Shown here: one piece after another, positions 9,494 to 30,275 of the stretch
Layout: each line of letters begins with the position of its first letter
Numbering within the stretch: the first letter of the stretch is position 1
Origin: a virus
Virus genome (UHGV): UHGV-0061407
Reading direction: 5' to 3' (one strand)
Length of the DNA stretch: 30,325 nucleotides
Position numbers and translations under genes: made by a program
The notes under the pieces: model-generated
The model's input: only the letters and a program-made list of their open reading frames with translations
Database searches by the model: none
Told to the model about the DNA's origin: nothing

Positions 9494-9554
9494 GCCTGCA
9501 TGAAACCATGCGGGCTTTTTTTTTGCCCAAAGAAAAAGCCCACCGAAGTGGGCC
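9494..9554. terminator. Back-to-back terminator hairpins (plus-strand hairpin + T9; minus-strand hairpin ggcccac-uucg-gugggc + U5)
   Basis: Plus: stem 9494-9502/9507-9515 (one G-U), loop aaac, T-run 9516-9524. Minus: stem 9538-9543/9548-9553 with UUCG-type loop, followed by T-run (complement of 9531-9537). Confidence 0.5.
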
Positions 9555-9927
9555 TTACAGCTATCATCATTTTTTATTAGGTGTGGTGCCGGGTGCCTCC
9601 CGGTAAGTCGCCGCCAGTCCACAGACGACTCGCAATGCGCAAAAAAACATATCAGACTGGCAATGCCCCTCCGCATAGGGGGATTCACCACACGGATAAT
9701 TTAGGATGTAGTCATAGGCGGCGTCAATAACTGACACTCTGTCAAAGGCACCATTACGATGCCTTTTGCACAGTGCTAATCACTGGCTCTAATAAGGGGC
9801 CAGAGCAAAGCGATTACCCCGGCTACCAGCACTCCATCAGCCAGGATTGACATCATTTTGCTGGTGAAGTCGATAGCAACCACCAGAAACAAAAGCACCC
9901 CAGCTGCGGCCCAGCGAAGTTTACCGA

Positions 9928-22957: not shown

Positions 22958-23632
22958 ATGAAAACAATCCAGGAAATCAGGCGGTTAAACGCCAGAAAAT
23001 TGCGTGATGGTGTTGGCGGTAATATTTACTTCGCCAATATGATTGATCGCGAGCCGACTCAAACCAGCCGGTTCATGGGAGATGGCGCCACTAAAAACAT
23101 CGGCGATGCAATGGCAAGGCACATTGAAAAGTGTTTTGACTTACCTACTGGGTGGTTAGATCAGGAACATCAAACCACTAATGTTGCTAAAACGCCCGAT
23201 GTCTCTGATACATATAGAAATATCACCATGGTTCCGGTTATATCCTGGGTACAAGCAGGAGCATGGACCGAAGTTGGCTATGCTGAGGTTGATTTGAATA
23301 GCACTGAAAACTATCCATGCCCTGTTCCTTGTGGGCCGATGACTTATATTCTTCGTGTTATTGGCGACTCAATGATCGACGAATATCGGCCCGGTGATAT
23401 GATTTTTGTTGATCCCGAAGTTCCAGCAGTGCATGGAGATGATGTGATCGCCTTAATGCACGATTCTGGTGAGACTACATTTAAACGGTTGATTGAAGAT
23501 GCAGGACAACGCTATCTAAAAGCACTTAACTCAAACTGGCCAGAACCTTACATCAAAATCAATGGTAATTGCTCTATCATTGGTACCGTAATTTTTTCCG
23601 GTAAACCAAGACGATACCGAACGAAAACATAA
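22958..23632 (+). CDS. cI: CI-type prophage repressor with C-terminal S24 (LexA-like) autopeptidase domain
   Basis: 224 aa; N-terminal HTH region, C-terminal S24 motifs (VIGDSM serine, FKRL lysine); divergent from cro. Confidence 0.85.
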   Translation: MKTIQEIRRLNARKLRDGVGGNIYFANMIDREPTQTSRFMGDGATKNIGDAMARHIEKCFDLPTGWLDQEHQTTNVAKTPDVSDTYRNITMVPVISWVQAGAWTEVGYAEVDLNSTENYPCPVPCGPMTYILRVIGDSMIDEYRPGDMIFVDPEVPAVHGDDVIALMHDSGETTFKRLIEDAGQRYLKALNSNWPEPYIKINGNCSIIGTVIFSGKPRRYRTKT

Positions 23633-23646
23633 CAAAGACTATTAAA

Positions 23647-23667
23647 CCTGCTTCGGCGGGTTTTTTT
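23647..23667 (+). terminator. Intrinsic terminator after cI
   Basis: Hairpin cctgc-ttcg-gcggg (UUCG loop, one G-U) followed by T7 (23661-23667). Confidence 0.5.
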
Positions 23668-23671
23668 ACAC

Positions 23672-23704
23672 TTGACAATGTACCTCAACGGTACATAATG
23701 TACC
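23672..23704 (+). promoter_or_regulatory. pL-like early-left promoter with embedded operator O3
   Basis: -35 TTGACA (23672-23677), 16-nt spacer, -10 CATAAT (23694-23699); operator tgtacctcaacggtaca (23679-23695) between -35 and -10; extra half-site tgtacc 23699-23704. Confidence 0.5.
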
Positions 23705-23805
23705 TAAAAGAAACAGTGAACAGGCAGGACGCCCACGAAGTAGCCGCCCGGGGCATATGAAGACCGGGATGATTCGCTAACAGATAAACCAAATAGGAAC
23801 AGAAC

Positions 23806-24039
23806 ATGGCGAGCAAAGGCATTGAAAACCTTATAAAGGACGCATTAGCAAACGGCTGTCATGTAGTCCGTAAAGCGCATCGCTTCGAGGTAAGCAAGAA
23901 AGGCCAAAAATCAATCACTCTTATTATTTGTGAAGATGGCACAGCTTACCGCGGAGATATTGACCTAACGATCGCCATAGCCATTCGCACTCAAAAAGAA
24001 ATGCGTAGCGTCCTCGGCCTGCCGGCTAAGGCAATTTAA
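23806..24039 (+). CDS. Hypothetical protein, first gene of early-left operon
   Basis: 77 aa, AGGA RBS; no Arg-rich N-like motif; function unknown. Confidence 0.5.
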   Translation: MASKGIENLIKDALANGCHVVRKAHRFEVSKKGQKSITLIICEDGTAYRGDIDLTIAIAIRTQKEMRSVLGLPAKAI

Positions 24040-24049
24040 TTACCTCAGG

Positions 24050-25130
24050 TGTCTTCGGGAGGGGTTACGGAGCTGGATTGACCACCAGCAACAGAAACTC
24101 ACCCGACATACAGCAGCCGTTTAGCCCACGGCGTCGGGGGTCCAGTAGACCTGGATTAATACTGTAGGGGTTGTGCCGGTTGGTCGCCGGCGCCCCGCCC
24201 GAAGATTCCTGATCGAACATGGCGAAAGCCGACAGCGTTGAAGGCGATTTTCTCGGTTTGCGCGCTAAACAATAGCGGGGGTGAAATCGGGGCGGAGAAG
24301 CAGAATCCGCGATGTCGGGACTTGATACTTCCGGCCATACCAACAAGCCGAATGATCGCGTAACGATCCTTTGCATCTGCCCCGGCGAGGTGGCGCCGCC
24401 GGACCGGGGTAGATGAATCGTACACAACATGAAAGCGCATTCCATCTTCATCCGTCGTGGGGACTGGTTTGTAACTGAAGGAGTGCGCTTCCAGTTGTGA
24501 ACGGCAATATTCACGACCGTTGTATGGCACATGCAGCGTTAGCAGCCCGGATGGTTCCCTTGAAGTTCCATGCGCTATCCGGACAACTGGAATGTGCAAG
24601 CTAAGTGTTTCAGGCACGACGTGCGCCCCACCAGCGCGGCGAAAAGGTGTGACCCCGGGAAGAGTCCGGGAAACAACAGGTAAGAGCACTCCCGCCACAC
24701 GAGGCTGAAACCCAAGCGCCATGTGGATGCGCCGAAAAGCTACAACGGGGCGTTGGTAGAAGATCGGAGTGCTCTTTCCGTTGTGGTAATTGCGGCTATG
24801 CGCACGTGACGAGCCAAACCCGTTCAATGAATGCGTTTCCGGGAAGTGTACGTCGCCGGTTATGGCTTAACCCGGCAGGTGGAGGCACCACCGCCACAAC
24901 CTAGTTAACTGTGCTGTGTGTAGTCTTGGCGGTTATCCAGTTTTCCACTATCCAAAGGAGGAAGAGGATAACGTTCTGATGGATAACCGCCCTTTTTACA
25001 CAATACACAAGAGCATCACCGGGCGACGGGCTCATTACCCAATCCACCCGGGCGGCGTCCTAACCGCAGGTGCTCTTCTGTGTTGTGTACGGAGAAATTC
25101 CCGGCGGTGGCAGCCGCCTTTCGAGAGGGT
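24050..25130. other. GC-rich, ORF-poor island with long-range perfect inverted repeats (candidate structured RNA or decayed gene)
   Basis: About 62-65% GC on sampled 60-nt lines versus about 45-52% in flanks; no convincing ORF on the operon strand; 10-bp and 12-bp perfect inverted repeats (see findings). Confidence 0.4.
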
Positions 25131-25136
25131 AAAACC

Positions 25137-25508
25137 ATGAGTAATGATCGCATGACAGTAGTGCCCGATTTCCTGGGTGAACTGGACGCCGGCGTATTCA
25201 TGAACAAGATTGCGGCGGCTCTTAATACCACCGCGCTCGGCGTTCTGAACAACGGCAACAAAGGCAAGGTTGTCCTCACCTTTGATTTTGAGCGTATGGG
25301 CAACTCTGTTGAAGAGAAGCGCGTCAAGATTAAGCACAAGCTGAACTACAGCACCCCAACTCCCCGCGGCAAAGCGTCGGAAGAGGACACCACCGAAACA
25401 CCAATGTGGGTTAACAAAGGCGGCAAGCTCACAATCCTGCAAGAGGATCAGGGGCAACTCTTCGGTATCACCGGCGCGGTGGACGGAAAGCTTAAAGCGG
25501 CTCAGTGA
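25137..25508 (+). CDS. Hypothetical protein, YfdP-like by size and position (unverified)
   Basis: 123 aa from ATG 25137 (RBS GAGAGGG); precedes the YfdQ-like and YfdR-like ORFs as in CPS-53-type prophages (from memory). Confidence 0.5.
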   Translation: MSNDRMTVVPDFLGELDAGVFMNKIAAALNTTALGVLNNGNKGKVVLTFDFERMGNSVEEKRVKIKHKLNYSTPTPRGKASEEDTTETPMWVNKGGKLTILQEDQGQLFGITGAVDGKLKAAQ

Positions 25509-25564
25509 ACCGCACGTACAAATTCACTGATACCACTTCGCTAATCAGTTAATAAGGAATTTTT

Positions 25565-26392
25565 ATGTCTCAGTTAGACAGCGGTACTTTTCAGCAGGTT
25601 AAAGATCTGGTTCTTTCCGGTTATCACCTGAACGATATCCACGGCCTGGCCTGTCCGACCGCCCTGCTACCGCAGAATACCAGCGTTGAAAGCCTGGAGC
25701 GTTTTGCTCTTGAGCGTTTCCGTTTCCGCGGTGCCATGGACACGACCAGCATTGATGATTTCGTTCGCTATTCTGTCGCTTATGCCCGGGAAGAAGAAAA
25801 AGCACGTTGCTTTATTGATGCCGATAACATGCTGGCTCGTTCTATCTTCAATATCGGTACGTTGGACAACCTAGGCCACGCTGATAACGTCGCCTCGATC
25901 AAGCTTAAGAAGACAGCGCCCTTCCGCGCGTTACTGGCGATCAACGGCGATCACCTTAATCAGAAGCAAATAGCCGAATGGCTCGAAGACTGGAGTGACT
26001 ATCTCACTGCGTTCGATTCCGACGGTCAGACAATGAAAAATGCACAGGCAGCGCAGGCGGTTCGCCGTGTCACTATCCAGCAAACTAATGCCGCCGATCA
26101 TGAAGACGGTGATTTCAGCGGCAAAAAATCGCTGATGCAAAGTATCGAAGCCAGCAGTAAAGATGTTATGCCGGTCGCGTTTGAGTTTAAGTGTGTACCC
26201 TATGAAGGCCTGGGCGAACGTCGTTTCAGTCTTCGCAATAGCCTGCTCAAAAGTAGCGATCCGGTATTCGTTCTGCGTATTGTCCAGCTGGAAGCCCAGG
26301 AAGAAGCGATCGCCAATGAGTTCCGAGATCTGCTGATTGGCAAGTTCGACGGCAAGCCGGTAGAAACCTTTATCGGCAACTTCAAAGCCTGA
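25565..26392 (+). CDS. Hypothetical protein, YfdQ-like (DUF2303-type) by size and synteny (unverified)
   Basis: 275 aa ORF; assignment by length and neighbourhood, not by recognised motif. Confidence 0.5.
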   Translation: MSQLDSGTFQQVKDLVLSGYHLNDIHGLACPTALLPQNTSVESLERFALERFRFRGAMDTTSIDDFVRYSVAYAREEEKARCFIDADNMLARSIFNIGTLDNLGHADNVASIKLKKTAPFRALLAINGDHLNQKQIAEWLEDWSDYLTAFDSDGQTMKNAQAAQAVRRVTIQQTNAADHEDGDFSGKKSLMQSIEASSKDVMPVAFEFKCVPYEGLGERRFSLRNSLLKSSDPVFVLRIVQLEAQEEAIANEFRDLLIGKFDGKPVETFIGNFKA

Positions 26393-26521
26393 TTGCTCTC
26401 CATTAAATCCCCGGCGCCGCGGGGATTTATTAAAGCGTAATCCTGCAATTAATCGCCACATGGCGAGGGATTCCTACACCCAAAAAACAGCGCTGTGCAG
26501 GCGTAAAGTATGGAGAAAAAA

Positions 26522-27049
26522 ATGAGCTTTATTCAAACCTTTTCAGGCAAACATTTTAACTATCTCGACATCCAGCAAGACGCCATCGAGATCGAAGATA
26601 TTGCTAATGCACTCTCGAACATCTGCCGCTTTGCCGGTCACCTGCCTGAGTTCTATAGCGTCGGCCAGCACAGCGTTTTAACAAGCCAACTGGTACCTCA
26701 AGAATTTGCGCTTGAAGCGCTGCTGCATGACGCCGCCGAGGCATATTTGCAGGATATCCCTGCCCCATTAAAACGCCTTCTTCCTGACTACCGCGCAATT
26801 GAAGATCAGGTTGATGCAGCTATTCGCCAAAAATTCGGCCTGCCGGCTGAGCAGCACCCGACCGTTAAATATGCCGACCTGGTGATGCTGGCCAGCGAAC
26901 GTCGCGACTTTGAGATCGACGACGGCACCCACTGGCCGATGCTCGACGGCGTCATTCCTACCGACCAGTTTTTGATTAACCCCGTCCGCCCGGGCCAGTC
27001 TTACGGCATGTTCATGAACCGCTTTAACCAACTGATGGAGCGGCGCTAA
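26522..27049 (+). CDS. HD-domain phosphohydrolase (YfdR-like)
   Basis: 175 aa from ATG 26522 (GGAG RBS); His...His-Asp pattern (GQHSV...LLHDAAEAYLQD) consistent with the HD superfamily. Confidence 0.6.
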   Translation: MSFIQTFSGKHFNYLDIQQDAIEIEDIANALSNICRFAGHLPEFYSVGQHSVLTSQLVPQEFALEALLHDAAEAYLQDIPAPLKRLLPDYRAIEDQVDAAIRQKFGLPAEQHPTVKYADLVMLASERRDFEIDDGTHWPMLDGVIPTDQFLINPVRPGQSYGMFMNRFNQLMERR

Positions 27050-27249
27050 TGGCACATGTGAAAGTGAAAGAATTGGTTGCTGCAGCATACGCTGCAGCAC
27101 CTGACCTACCACCAGCAGCAGCACAATTAATGCAAGACATAGCGTCAAGGCTGGATGTGACCTTTGTCGCCCTTACAGAGGCAATGGACCAGAACACCGC
27201 TATGGCCGCGATGATAGCGAACCTGAGCGAGGAAAACAGAAATGGCTAA
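27049..27249 (+). CDS. Hypothetical small protein
   Basis: 66 aa; start overlaps previous stop (TAATG) and stop overlaps next start, indicating translational coupling. Confidence 0.45.
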   Translation: MAHVKVKELVAAAYAAAPDLPPAAAQLMQDIASRLDVTFVALTEAMDQNTAMAAMIANLSEENRNG

Positions 27250-28027
27250 AAACTCGATCGATGCTTATGGCGCCAGCGGCAAGACAAACGTTCTGATGTT
27301 CGAGCCGGAAAATCTGCATATTGTCACTGACAAGGCCCACCCGCTTTACGATGAGCGAGTCAATCTGCCGATCGATGAAGGGATGGTGCTGAATATCAAA
27401 GAGCTGGGTGTTCTTGAGCCGATTATTGTCTGGAAAGACCCTGAAAAGGGGCTCACCTGTGTGGTTGTCGGTCGTCAGCGCGTTAAACATACGCTGGAAG
27501 CCAATAAGCTCCTGCTGAAAGAAGGCAAAACACCGCTGCTTGTTCCTGGAGTCGTTAAGCGTGGGTCGGCAAACCAAATGGCCAAATATATGGTCAGCGA
27601 AAACGAAATCCGCCGACCTGATACGCCACTAGGTCGAGCTAAGAAAATGTCAGACGCGCTGGATCGTGGTCATGACGAGGACGACCTTGCGGTGTTGTTT
27701 GGCTGTAGCGTTCAGACTGTCCGTGCAACGCTGTCACTACTCGATGCTACCCAGGCTGTTCGGGAAGCGGTGGAGTCTGGCACAGTTACCGTTACCCAGG
27801 CGCGTCAGCTTGGCGCGCTCCCACCTGAAGAGCAGCGGGCAAAAGTGGCAGAAATCGAGCTGGCGACAGCTGGTACCAAAGGCCATGAAAAATCCCGTCG
27901 GCAGCGTCAGGTTCTCGGTGAGGCAAAGCCGCGCATCAAATCGCGTAAGGAAATAACTAAAGCCCTTGAAGATGCCAGCGGCGAATATGCCGAGGCTCTG
28001 CGCTGGGTAATTGGGGAGGCGCAATGA
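27242..28027 (+). CDS. ParB-like nuclease/partition-domain protein
   Basis: 261 aa; ParB-box-like segment LGVLEPIIVWKDPEKGLTCVVVGRQRVKH and HTH-like LAVLFGCSVQTVRATL. Confidence 0.65.
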   Translation: MAKNSIDAYGASGKTNVLMFEPENLHIVTDKAHPLYDERVNLPIDEGMVLNIKELGVLEPIIVWKDPEKGLTCVVVGRQRVKHTLEANKLLLKEGKTPLLVPGVVKRGSANQMAKYMVSENEIRRPDTPLGRAKKMSDALDRGHDEDDLAVLFGCSVQTVRATLSLLDATQAVREAVESGTVTVTQARQLGALPPEEQRAKVAEIELATAGTKGHEKSRRQRQVLGEAKPRIKSRKEITKALEDASGEYAEALRWVIGEAQ

Positions 28028-28254
28028 ACTTTGAACCTGAAAATTACAGCCGGCGCGCCCTTCTCTGGTTTGCTGCACTGGTTAATGTTGCCGGGTGGGT
28101 TGCAGTAGTCGCTGTGACCTGGGCTAATGGTGATTCAGAAAAACGAATGACTGGTGCTGACTGGCCTACCGCCATCGAGATGTATAAGCCCACCGTTCGC
28201 ATTGTTGAGGAAAATATACCTCGCGCCGCCGGCATCAAGGTGGAGGCTGAGTAG
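28024..28254 (+). CDS. Hypothetical small membrane protein
   Basis: 76 aa; hydrophobic segment LLWFAALVNVAGWVAVVAVTWA; ATGA overlap with upstream gene. Confidence 0.5.
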   Translation: MNFEPENYSRRALLWFAALVNVAGWVAVVAVTWANGDSEKRMTGADWPTAIEMYKPTVRIVEENIPRAAGIKVEAE

Positions 28255-28773
28255 ATGGCACTGACACACGATGAACTTTGCCAGATAGCCTATCAATTCC
28301 TTAAGCGGAACGGCTTCAAAGTCTGCTTTCATGATCGCTTTGTCGCTGTCACCAGTACCGGTGAGCAGCCAGACGCGATGGGGTTCAGGAACTTCGCATC
28401 CTGCCTGATAGAGGCGAAGTGCTCCCGTGCCGACCTACTGGCAGACAGGAAAAAACGCTTCCGGATACGCCCGGAGCTTGGCATGGGTGACTGGCGATTC
28501 TTTATCAGCGAGCCGGGGATTATCTCTGTTGAAGACCTTCCGCCAGGCTGGGGTCTGCTGCACGTAATCAACGGGAAAGTGCGCAAGATTCACGGGTGGC
28601 CGCAGGGTAATTGCTGCTGGGGTAATCCAGAGGATAAGCCATTCGCAGGCAATAAACAGGTCGAATGCGATTACATGCTGTCAGCACTGCGTCGGATGGA
28701 GCTGAGAGGGCATCTAAACGAAATTTACGACGGCGTGATAGTCAATCGCGCCGCAGAAGGAGCCAATCAATGA
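28255..28773 (+). CDS. PD-(D/E)XK-like nuclease fold protein (MmcB-like, tentative)
   Basis: 172 aa; candidate D...E-x-K motif (GEQPDAMGF...CLIEAKCS). Confidence 0.45.
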   Translation: MALTHDELCQIAYQFLKRNGFKVCFHDRFVAVTSTGEQPDAMGFRNFASCLIEAKCSRADLLADRKKRFRIRPELGMGDWRFFISEPGIISVEDLPPGWGLLHVINGKVRKIHGWPQGNCCWGNPEDKPFAGNKQVECDYMLSALRRMELRGHLNEIYDGVIVNRAAEGANQ

Positions 28774-28982
28774 CAAATAACGACGAAACGAAAGGTCGCT
28801 ATATCTACCACTTCTGTGGCGCACTGAAAGGTCAGAACGCCACGTTTTCAGGTGTCGCTCAACTGTCGTTCAGAATCACGAGCCAGCAGGATTTGGAGAG
28901 ATTCAAAGCGGTCGCCAGTTGTGAGGGAAAAGAAATCGCTGCAGTTTTATCTCTGAGCTATCTGGGCCGGGAGCACGAATAA
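28771..28982 (+). CDS. Hypothetical small protein
   Basis: 70 aa from ATG 28771 overlapping previous stop (ATGA); track ORF 28665..28982 has this as its likely true start. Confidence 0.4.
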
Positions 28983-30023
28983 ATGACCAAATCAACCATA
29001 ACCAGAGAGCGCCTGCAGGAAATCGCCGAAGATGGTTTCCTGAAGCATGGCGAAAGCAAAGAGCTAGCGCGTATGGCGCTGGCCGCAATGGACAGCGAGC
29101 CGGTGGCGTACACCGACGAACGCAACCTGGGCTATATCGACCGAGGGAGGGAGACGGCATATCTGTGGGGCAAGCAGAACTCAGAGGCGGGAGATGTACC
29201 GCTCTATCGCCACACGCTGCCAGCGCCAGAACGCGACCGAGTACGCTGCGAGCATGCCGAGTGGTCACAATCAACATTCGGTAATGTTGGCCCGATTGGC
29301 CCGCTGAAGCATCTCAGCAAAGAAGCACTGGAAGCCGCTGCCGATCCTAGCGACCTGTCGGAATGGGCCGATATGCAATTCCTACTGTGGGACGCCCAGC
29401 GACGGGCTGGTATTACAGACGAGCAGATTACCCAGGCGATGATCGAAAAACTGGCGGTGAACAAGCAACGCGAATGGCCTGAGCCGAAAGACGGTGAGCC
29501 GCGGTTGCACATTAAAGATCAGCCATCGGCGGTAGGGCCAGTAACAGATGCTATGGCTTACGCATTCCATCATGCGCTAACCGATGGCCCCTTGGGTGAT
29601 GACGATGTGGAGGATATTAAGACCGGATTGCGAGCAGCTTTCGCTACTGTAACCCTCAATCAGCCAGCGCCGGTAGTGCTTACATTTGAGGAATGGTGTA
29701 AGAGAACCGGCCAGAAACCTCAAGGTTGGGTGTGTGACGCCATGAAAGAAGCCTATGAAGGCGCCAACTCTCCGGTAATCCCGGATGGTTACGTGATGGT
29801 ACCAATGAGGCTTACCGCTGAGAACGGTGCAAAGGGCGCGCTATCTGGTGAATTTTCAGAAACACAGTTTGTAAACTGCCCGGAGTGTTTTGGTGATGAT
29901 GAATGCGAAACCTGCGACGGCAGCGGCAGAGTTGAAATAAAAGTGCCTGTCAGTTGGACGACTATCAAAGCAATTTGGGTTAAAGGTGTCGAGCATTTTG
30001 CAACCACCATTACCGAAGAATAA
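28983..30023 (+). CDS. DUF550-like (MazG-like dATP/dGTP pyrophosphohydrolase domain) protein with C-terminal Cys-rich region
   Basis: 346 aa; central region (WSQSTFGNVGPIGPLKHLSKEALE...LLWDAQRRAGITDEQI...REWPEP) resembles phage DUF550; C-terminal CPECFGDDECETCDGSG zinc-ribbon-like. Confidence 0.5.
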   Translation: MTKSTITRERLQEIAEDGFLKHGESKELARMALAAMDSEPVAYTDERNLGYIDRGRETAYLWGKQNSEAGDVPLYRHTLPAPERDRVRCEHAEWSQSTFGNVGPIGPLKHLSKEALEAAADPSDLSEWADMQFLLWDAQRRAGITDEQITQAMIEKLAVNKQREWPEPKDGEPRLHIKDQPSAVGPVTDAMAYAFHHALTDGPLGDDDVEDIKTGLRAAFATVTLNQPAPVVLTFEEWCKRTGQKPQGWVCDAMKEAYEGANSPVIPDGYVMVPMRLTAENGAKGALSGEFSETQFVNCPECFGDDECETCDGSGRVEIKVPVSWTTIKAIWVKGVEHFATTITEE

Positions 30024-30065: not shown

Positions 30066-30275
30066 ATGGCAAAACTTATGAAAGCGAGTCAATGGGGAAA
30101 ACGCGAATTTACCAAAGACTCTATTCCGGATAATCGAACCATTAAACGTTGGGTCGAAAATGGCCTCCTCACAGGCAAAATCGTCGACGGCTCTGTTTTC
30201 GTCTTCGAGTCTGAAAAATGGGGGGTCGACTCAATGGTTAATCATGCGGTTCGCCAGCTTATCAGTGAGGATTAA
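30066..30275 (+). CDS. xis: Excisionase (lambda Xis-like)
   Basis: 69 aa immediately upstream of the integrase start; TIKRWVENGLLTGKIVDGSVFVFESE resembles the lambda Xis winged-helix pattern. Confidence 0.6.
   Translation: MAKLMKASQWGKREFTKDSIPDNRTIKRWVENGLLTGKIVDGSVFVFESEKWGVDSMVNHAVRQLISED

Follow-up and report, generated by a model that had tools for sequence, protein, structure and literature searches.

UHGV-0061407 is a virus genome, analysed here over 30,325 nucleotides of DNA (the window), and the subject of this report is a string of nine plus-strand open reading frames (ORFs) at positions 25,137 to 30,023, together with the promoter and leader that precede it. As a whole, the 30.3-kb window represents a lambdoid prophage. 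Among the phages in the collection, Klebsiella phage Kp4866-6 is nearest to it in DNA sequence (88% identity, 47% of the query), and one IMG/VR contig from a Klebsiella strain, IMGVR_UViG_2703718698_000005, is identical to the window over 4.8 kb (L052; L numbers are our labels for contigs and loci). Across the yfdP, yfdQ and yfdR genes, which open the string, the DNA is 77-80% identical to that of Salmonella ST64B, Citrobacter phiNP and the Escherichia coli phages LLS, Flotzy and Eeyore. An earlier note, made from the letters alone, had described an early-left operon of DNA-metabolism flavour at this site and had suggested that its nucleotide hydrolases and ParB-like protein serve nucleotide-pool manipulation or anti-defence. 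All nine ORFs were confirmed at the coordinates given there.

Genes of the operon

The nine genes, and the small ORF that follows them, are listed below. Identities are to the E. coli K-12 proteins and span the full protein length.

25137..25508, plus strand: yfdP-like gene, 123 aa (phrog_204 at 1e-41; 59% identity to YfdP)
25565..26392, plus strand: yfdQ, DUF2303, 275 aa (PF10065 at 2.8e-61; 56% identity to YfdQ)
26510..27049, plus strand: YfdR-type HD phosphohydrolase gene, 179 aa, alternative start at 26522 (phrog_318 at 1.5e-98; 66% identity to YfdR)
27049..27249, plus strand: orf66, small conserved protein (phrog_12248 at 7.7e-32)
27242..28027, plus strand: orphan ParB-like gene, 261 aa, divergent ParB N-terminal domain plus ParB helix-turn-helix (HTH) domain (HTH_ParB at 3.3e-10)
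28024..28254, plus strand: orf76, one predicted transmembrane segment (Kyte-Doolittle 19-residue maximum of 2.25, residues 13-31)
28255..28773, plus strand: orf172, PD-(D/E)XK-fold nuclease-like, Hjc-like (structure model; closest solved structure SPO1766, PDB 3DNX)
28770..28982, plus strand: orf70, small conserved protein (phrog_29890 at 1.5e-20)
28983..30023, plus strand: EaA-type multidomain protein, 346 aa, with a DUF550 domain at residues 88-181 (PF04447 at 1.5e-42)
30066..30275, plus strand: orf69, last small ORF before the window end, at the excisionase position (weak HTH hint only)

The earlier note had chained all nine genes by overlapping stop and start codons. The coupled string consists of seven genes, not nine, because gaps of 56 nt (yfdP to yfdQ) and 117 nt (yfdQ to the HD gene) lie at the first two junctions. 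From the HD gene onwards, reading frames overlap or abut: the HD gene and orf66 share one nucleotide in TAATG (27047-27051), orf66 and the ParB-like gene overlap by 8 nt (27242-27249), the motif ATGA joins the ParB-like gene to orf76 (28024-28027) and orf172 to orf70 (28770-28773), and orf70 abuts the DUF550 gene in TAAATG (28980-28985). These are the five junctions that had been listed, all of them real, with one start to be moved by a single position (28770, not 28771). The abutting TAGATG between orf76 and orf172 (28252-28257) was not on that list. Tight stop/start coupling is ordinary in phage operons and is no evidence of shared function. The three small ORFs, orf66, orf76 and orf70, are supported as real genes by matches to PHROG families at E values of 1.5e-20 or better; in the case of orf76 (phrog_2936, 2.8e-20), the match covers the N-terminal part only.

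A repressor-controlled early-left region

The control elements upstream of the operon are as follows.

22958..23632, plus strand: cI-like repressor gene with a LexA-type S24 peptidase domain (Peptidase_S24 at 1.4e-25)
23672-23699, plus strand: PL-like promoter, TTGACA-16-CATAAT (promoter scan, 11/12 matches)
23680-23694 and 23691-23703, plus strand: operator-like palindromes GTAC-N5-9-GTAC overlapping the PL-like promoter

Along the plus strand, the order is cI-like repressor, terminator, PL-like promoter, the small gene orf77, a stretch of about 1.1 kb that has no credible ORF, the nine genes, orf69 and the window end. Besides the promoter-like sequence at 23672-23699, the region has no strong sigma-70-type promoter. 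GTAC-N5-9-GTAC occurs four times in 30 kb, against 0.56 copies expected by chance, and the distribution is confined to two sites: two copies lie at the PL-like promoter, two (22875 and 22925) at the divergent cro-side promoter, and none elsewhere in the window. The repressor gene occupies the position of ST64B sb38 and of the LexA-like repressor of mEp460. This layout mirrors that of lambda, where cI is followed by PL and the left operon, and the gene order is that of ST64B, phiNP and mEp460, with xis and int coming next in ST64B and phiNP. Because of this repressor, promoter and operator anatomy, and the synteny with these three phages, the early-left label of the earlier note is correct. The region can be assigned, from its sequence, as a repressor-controlled PL (early-left) accessory operon that runs between the cI-like repressor with its PL-like promoter and the prophage end.

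The prophage is also rich in Chi sites (GCTGGTGG), with 19 in the 30.3-kb window, 16 of them on the minus strand, where about one would be expected by chance (an estimate from octamer frequency). A 2025 survey of lambdoid early-left operons (Genome Res 2025, PMC12315714) describes an 'LLS functional type' that is without any Rec module and rich in Chi sites, and proposes that such phages depend on host RecBCD and Chi. Among the ten proteins from YfdP to orf69, searches of Pfam, PHROG and NCBIfam gave no match to a Red-beta, Erf, RecT or Sak annealing protein, to an exonuclease, or to Gam/Abc or another anti-RecBCD protein; orf77 stands outside this ten-protein scan, having been compared with Pfam and PADLOC only, with no match in either. 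The window fits the LLS functional type, since it is Chi-rich with a bias to one strand and its operon proteins include no recombinase family.

Mosaic organization around a conserved core

The inheritance of the individual genes was followed in 120 viral contigs recruited by a 24-mer that is invariant in the PL leader, and co-occurrence was counted in the 80 that have at least 4 kb of sequence.

yfdP with yfdQ directly downstream: 35/80 loci, never apart (35/35)
HD gene: 45/80 loci, with yfdPQ in 34/35
orf66: 15/80 loci, after the HD gene
ParB-like gene: 7/80 loci
DUF550 gene: 5/80 loci, in 3 of these upstream and on the opposite strand
orf172: 2/80 loci
orf76: 1/80 loci

Evolutionary coherence is seen in one unit only, yfdP-yfdQ-HD(yfdR), which orf66 often accompanies, and the ParB-like gene, orf76, orf172, orf70 and the EaA/DUF550 gene are interchangeable cargo typical of the lambdoid stretch from PL to xis-int. 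The YfdP-YfdQ pair also recurs at 34-35% YfdQ identity in unrelated phage contigs, where its neighbours are different. For instance, one contig has DnaJ-domain and hexapeptide-repeat proteins beside it, L128 and L129 (150-2240) have a ParB-like gene directly upstream of it, and in L130 (5596-7301) it is followed by a DUF1064 gene with a divergent RecT alongside. ParB and nuclease-like partners recur loosely around the pair. DNA matches in both the phage and the E. coli collections stop at the module borders. Because of the co-occurrence counts, the varied neighbours of the distant pairs and the matches that end at module borders, the region is a mosaic of exchangeable modules, not one coordinated system. 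This agrees with the survey of early-left operons (PMC12315714), in which yfdP, yfdQ and a nucleotidase are 'fairly common' and distant ParB relatives are found in a few regions.

The yfdP-yfdQ-HD module

YfdQ matches PF10065 at 207.6 bits, against a gathering cut-off of 26.6, and its family comprises 1330 clusters at 50% identity. Its AlphaFold2 model has a pLDDT (predicted local distance difference test score) of 88.6, and its profile matches PDB entry 9o7m ('YfdQ Protein') at 8e-82. Apart from that entry, no PDB fold match across the whole protein was found in a fold library that runs to April 2026 and does not hold 9o7m. YfdP has no solved relative in the PDB, whether searched by single sequence or by profile, and since no YfdP-like chain can be detected there, 9O7M does not seem to include YfdP.

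The 36 chains of the 9o7m entry imply a large assembly, and this raises a reading in which yfdP-yfdQ, perhaps with the ParB-like and PD-(D/E)XK proteins, make up an unrecognized recombination or DNA-end-processing module in the missing Rec slot, YfdQ oligomers working on DNA like single-strand annealing proteins. The pair does stand in the slot of Red, Erf or RecET in a phage without a recognizable recombinase, it has ParB-like genes before it and DUF1064 after it in the distant contigs, and relatives of orf172 weakly resemble the Holliday-junction resolvase Hjc. However, the cluster is found in phages with a complete Rec module as well, such as ArgO145 (PMC12315714), and beside RecT in L130, and the proposed use of host RecBCD and Chi by LLS-type phages (PMC12315714) speaks against a hidden recombinase. 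A recombination module is improbable on this evidence.

The third member of the core is better characterized. The 66% identity of the HD protein to K-12 YfdR extends over 175 aa (E = 7e-89), the label of phrog_318 is deoxyribonucleoside 5'-monophosphate phosphatase, and RefSeq labels K-12 yfdR a 5'-deoxynucleotidase. The protein matches the HD structure PDB 2gz4 at 3e-11, and the metal-binding motif is present, with H54 and the HD dyad at 73-74 (in 'ALLHDAAEAY') aligned with 2gz4. By these matches the HD gene is a member of the YfdR-type 5'-deoxynucleotidase family. A lead to its role comes from K-12, where YfdR binds DnaA through Phe46 of domain I, in competition with DiaA and DnaB, and where multicopy yfdQRS or yfdQRT inhibits initiation at oriC both in vivo and in vitro (PMC4776307).

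Cargo genes

The ParB-like protein carries a clear ParB HTH (PF17762 at 40.5 bits, cut-off 22.6) and matches Noc/Spo0J structures at 4e-6, and its N-terminal domain scores below threshold (PF02195 at 14.4 bits, E = 0.04, cut-off 26.3). With the CTP-dependent DNA clamps ParB, Noc and KorB it shares the ParB-type HTH and an N-terminal ParB/Srx-like segment with box III 'ENEIR'. It differs from them in being an orphan, in its sub-threshold N-domain, in having GRQR for GERR in box II (GRQRVKH aligned to GERRWRA of Noc), and in the lack of a recognizable C-terminal dimerization domain. The resemblance of the HTH to Noc and Spo0J could be taken to mean that this protein is a plasmid-like partition factor or a gene-regulating DNA-sliding clamp with its neighbours as accessory factors, as for KorB or BisD; gene-activating ParB-like CTP clamps are known on integrative and conjugative elements (PMC12409273). 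Yet the Pfam, PHROG and NCBIfam scans found no ParA among the operon products, and both the sub-threshold domain and the altered box II argue against a canonical clamp. The gene is present in 7 of the 80 related operons, so it cannot organize a conserved module. The prophage, moreover, integrates, and ST64B and phiNP have xis and int at the corresponding end, which speaks against partition. An operon built around this protein is very unlikely indeed.

The model of orf172 shows an alpha-beta-beta-beta-alpha-beta core, and 31 sequences with identities down to 57% all keep residues E37, D40, E53 and K55. As modelled, orf172 has a PD-(D/E)XK nuclease fold. The protein itself has no Pfam match, and Hjc is reached only at E = 0.018 in its relatives. 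Relative to the Hjc/SPO1766-type nucleases it has no significant sequence-level family membership, and its helical C-terminal extension (residues 134-169) is family-specific. Its relatives are sometimes fused to Ead/Ea22-like N-termini. The 'small membrane proteins' of the earlier note come down to one: orf76 has the hydrophobic segment at residues 13-31, whereas Kyte-Doolittle analysis shows no transmembrane segment in orf66 or orf70. In the case of orf69, nothing was found in favour of an excisionase, there being no similarity to ST64B Xis or K-12 TorI; in the phage collection, homologues occur only in three records of E. coli phages (two 'hypothetical', one unannotated).

The last gene of the operon matches PF04447 at 144.2 bits (cut-off 23), a family now named dATP/dGTP pyrophosphohydrolase. 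Outside the DUF550 domain, the protein has a C-terminal CxxC...CxxC arrangement (CPEC at residue 299, CETC at residue 308), and homologues in Klebsiella phages are annotated 'EaA protein'. Its match to the MazZ structure 7ody is weak (E = 0.02, across the catalytic helices), and in that weak alignment KEALE pairs with EEIGE and EWAD with EVAD, the first acidic residue of EExxE being replaced by K.

These enzymes bring us to the function that had been proposed for the operon, a coordinated unit in which the HD and DUF550 proteins reshape dNTP or signalling-nucleotide pools while the ParB-like protein and the nuclease counter host immunity. Two nucleotide hydrolase families do lie in one early operon, and counter-defence genes are typically expressed early. 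In Z-genome phages, dGTP and dATP are substrates of DUF550/MazZ enzymes (PMC12884076, PMC8342488), and there has been speculation that orphan ParB-fold proteins of prophages take part in anti-defence (bioRxiv 10.1101/2025.10.10.680097). As a set, the genes are not inherited together, however, and HD and DUF550 in particular (45/80 and 5/80 loci) seldom share a locus. The YfdR family dephosphorylates deoxynucleoside monophosphates (dNMPs), so that no relief from a dNTP-depleting defence is expected, and purZ and datZ, the partners of MazZ in Z-genome phages, are not among the operon families in the Pfam, PHROG and NCBIfam scans. No member matched a characterized anti-defence protein in the profile searches run. 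PADLOC returned no family for the 10 proteins at E up to 0.01, a weak argument, as PADLOC models defence, not anti-defence. The literature on yfdQR concerns DnaA-dependent initiation (PMC4776307). We consider the combined nucleotide-pool and anti-defence function unlikely and do not retain it.

A structured RNA leader between PL and yfdP

Between the PL-like promoter and yfdP lie several elements of conserved RNA structure and one small gene.

23713..23781, plus strand: Block A, 69-nt structured RNA: closing helix, invariant core, covarying hairpin (RNAalifold, 7 compensatory pairs)
23806..24039, plus strand: orf77, small ORF between Block A and M1 (3/80 loci)
24044..24215, plus strand: M1, closed structured RNA of about 165 nt with closing helix GGUGUCUUCGGGAGGGG / CCCCGCCCGAAGAUUCC (32 distinct homologues)
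24928..24997, plus strand: terminator-like hairpin GGCGGUUAUCCA...UGGAUAACCGCC (24928-24991), then a U5 run at 24993-24997 (alignment A6, helix 1)
24993..25118, plus strand: Block B, yfdP leader domain, with a basal helix (24993-25017/25070-25095), a three-way junction and a hairpin (25102-25118)

A scan of 23600-25300 matched no Rfam family at gathering thresholds, nor did it when hits up to E = 1 were admitted. In ST64B and phiNP, 0.8-1.0 kb of unannotated DNA between cI and yfdP aligns in blocks with the window. Block A begins 14 nt past the -10 hexamer of the PL-like promoter, and over 53 distinct sequences 98.7% of its alignment cells are paired, against 21-42% in slid controls. Its 26-nt core is invariant, in part because of the way of sampling. 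The element is present in over 100 enterobacterial phage contigs, and 100 phage loci have one full-scoring copy each; neither the window nor these loci have a second copy on the PR side, apart from one weak extra match in L067.

M1 occurs as two subtypes with a common 17-bp closing helix, in which 96-99% of cells are paired, with 7 compensatory pairs per subtype, and it contains a conserved Chi complement (CCACCAGC) at 24082. In L089, L001 and L104, M1 directly follows Block A, and orf77, which separates the two in the window, is a moron-like insertion. Between M1 and the hairpin, positions 24216-24927 of the plus strand align blockwise with other phages (24215-24422, 24518-24670 and 24673-24806), and a 277-nt piece of it (24412-24688) shares 87% identity with DNA that lies unannotated in other Klebsiella phages, for example KY271401.

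Nearest to yfdP, eight of the 12 pairs of the GC-rich terminator-like hairpin show compensatory changes, and the 25-bp basal helix of Block B starts inside the U5 run and is predicted to absorb the terminator U-tract. Taken together, terminator and Block B comprise 53 pairs, 96% paired against 42-52% in slid controls; 18 of the pairs are compensatory, and in 500 shuffles the observed values were never reached. The hairpin at 25102-25118 sits just before the yfdP ribosome-binding site; an ops/RfaH site at this position was rejected, as covariation in other lineages turns the hairpin into sequences other than ops. In the sampled loci the last 230 nt before yfdP are kept wherever yfdP is present, even at 59% protein identity, with L107 as a partial exception. 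The terminator and Block B leader travels with the yfdPQR module across lineages.

A link to gene expression can be found in E. coli K1 RS218, in which the 193-nt small RNA sRNA-17 was mapped by rapid amplification of cDNA ends to an intergenic region of 1.15 kb in an mEp460-like prophage; replacing this RNA raised yfdP about 95-fold, and yfdR too (PMC7719688). The intergenic region is CP007149 4534659-4535810, with sRNA-17 at 4535226-4535418, its mEp460 counterpart is 3902-4852 of L236 (mEp460_4F5), and mEp460 has Block A and the terminator/Block B leader upstream of yfdPQR. The sRNA-17 region is probably the same leader.

Block A invites comparison with the put RNAs. Like HK022 putL, it lies just downstream of PL (PMC9378689), is about 70 nt long, strongly conserved and structured, and has a terminator-like hairpin downstream in the operon; like the HK639 element, it is a single left-operon copy. 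The architecture differs, put of HK022 and HK639 being two adjacent stem-loops and Block A a closing helix around two hairpins. Identity with put was tried and rejected: with filters off, the Block A covariance model R1 gave no match at the HK022 put sites of the PL-PR region (hits only at E of 1.2 or more, and elsewhere), on the whole HK639 genome it missed the annotated putL-like RNA, and blastn found no similarity between Block A and put. In many loci Block A is followed by a boxA-like GCTCTTTAAC, and it is therefore not simply a stand-in for N-dependent antitermination.

Elsewhere in the window, the gammaproteobacterial small RNA STnc100 was identified, and no tRNA or tmRNA was found by ARAGORN.

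9525-9722, minus strand: STnc100 (Rfam, 99.8 bits against a gathering score of 47, full-length model)

Proposed role and its weight

A plausible course of events can be outlined from this anatomy. On inactivation of the cI-like repressor, PL would fire, and the transcript would begin with the 69-nt element, followed by about 1.3 kb of structured leader (a structure supported by covariation, with a regulatory role that we infer) and the terminator-like hairpin, and then by yfdP. The last seven genes, to judge from their junctions, would be translated as a stop/start-coupled string. The core module would most likely disturb host replication initiation and dNMP turnover soon after induction, as its K-12 homologues suggest, and the ParB-like, nuclease-fold and MazG-like proteins may act independently on DNA or nucleotides. 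Taken as a whole, the reading that we favour is that of a PL accessory operon, mosaic in make-up, in a prophage of the ST64B/LLS/phiNP type that is rich in Chi sites and has no Rec module, with the core module acting as proposed, and we put its probability at roughly 0.6. Most of that weight lies on the organization and much less on the DnaA mechanism.

Several points weigh against it. The part given to DnaA and initiation in the biology of the phage is drawn from the K-12 homologues only; in K-12 itself, deletion of the cluster (yfdQRST) gives no phenotype and the DnaA effect needed multicopy expression (PMC4776307). The window operon has no homologue of yfdS or yfdT, which were needed with yfdQR in K-12. 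No paper on the 9O7M structure or on DUF2303 function was found in the literature searched, and yfdP and yfdQ are without an assigned biochemical activity. Promoter, terminator and leader functions are predictions from sequence, and the 80 loci, sampled by an exact 24-nt match, are biased to one phage lineage.

A bolder interpretation can be attached to the leader, one that we regard as possible but doubtful. The 1.4-kb stretch from PL to yfdP may consist of several cis-acting RNA families in a row, none of them described before (Block A, M1 and the yfdP leader). Block A could then represent a second RNA class, distinct from put, whose members modify RNA polymerase or shield the transcript, so that PL transcription passes the leader terminator without N; separately, YfdP-YfdQ could be a new oligomeric complex for DNA transactions or host takeover. 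If the 5' element or the yfdP leader did control terminator read-through, this would be a second RNA-based route to early-operon antitermination, and such RNA-controlled read-through would explain left-operon expression in N-less phages of the ST64B type. Conserved structured RNAs that are absent from Rfam are found with the widespread yfdPQ-HD module and in the PL transcripts of many enterobacterial prophages, and the structured leader is the least-described part of the region.

In the case of the genes, the gain over the earlier note is more limited. Most of its fold labels hold, through the K-12 identities for YfdP, YfdQ and YfdR, the profile matches for the HD, ParB-like and DUF550 proteins and the structure model for orf172, and the description as DNA-metabolism genes was a fair one. 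The view that none is assignable stands for yfdP, yfdQ, the ParB-like gene and the small ORFs, but not for the HD gene and the nuclease fold, and a replication role free of any defence link is indicated in part, by the YfdR homologue. The operon adds little beyond fold-level labels for two ORFs. Co-occurrence singles out yfdP-yfdQ-HD as the only unit worth study as a system, with DnaA and replication initiation, and the newly released YfdQ structure, as the lead.

Comparison with known systems

The gene set is a further instance of the mosaic lambdoid accessory region already described, and the yfdPQR cluster has itself been described in early-left operons. The cryptic prophage CPS-53 of K-12 carries yfdP-yfdQ-yfdR-yfdS-yfdT, with the first three genes in the order of the window, and the cluster lies upstream of a recombination directionality factor and the attachment end, a position like that in the window. 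Where CPS-53 has yfdS and yfdT, the window instead has orf66, the ParB-like gene, orf76, orf172, orf70 and the DUF550 gene. Neither the immunity region nor the structured leader has been retained in CPS-53, where only the last 25 nt or so before yfdP resemble the leader of the L055/mEp460 type.

At the distal end of the operon, the 'ea' region of P22 and lambda (EaA/DUF550, Ea22-type) likewise has a DUF550-containing multidomain protein just upstream of xis-int. The domain make-up around DUF550 differs between phages, as seen in many partial PHROG matches, and we know of no experimental role for EaA. The MazG-like pyrophosphohydrolase MazZ (PDB 7ODY), which acts on (d)GTP and (d)ATP in Z-genome phages, belongs to the same Pfam family, PF04447, and the window protein has about 250 residues more.

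The nearest counterparts are ST64B (sb37-sb35), LLS (gp39-37) and phiNP, all of which show cI, a long unannotated gap, yfdP-yfdQ-HD, variable genes, xis and int. Their cargo after the HD gene is entirely unlike that of the window, with DUF262, Ea22-like and exonuclease genes in ST64B, and a methyltransferase and an exonuclease gene in phiNP. The leader measures 1.41 kb in the window, where orf77 and extra modules have been inserted, as against 0.69-0.87 kb in the ST64B/LLS/phiNP type.

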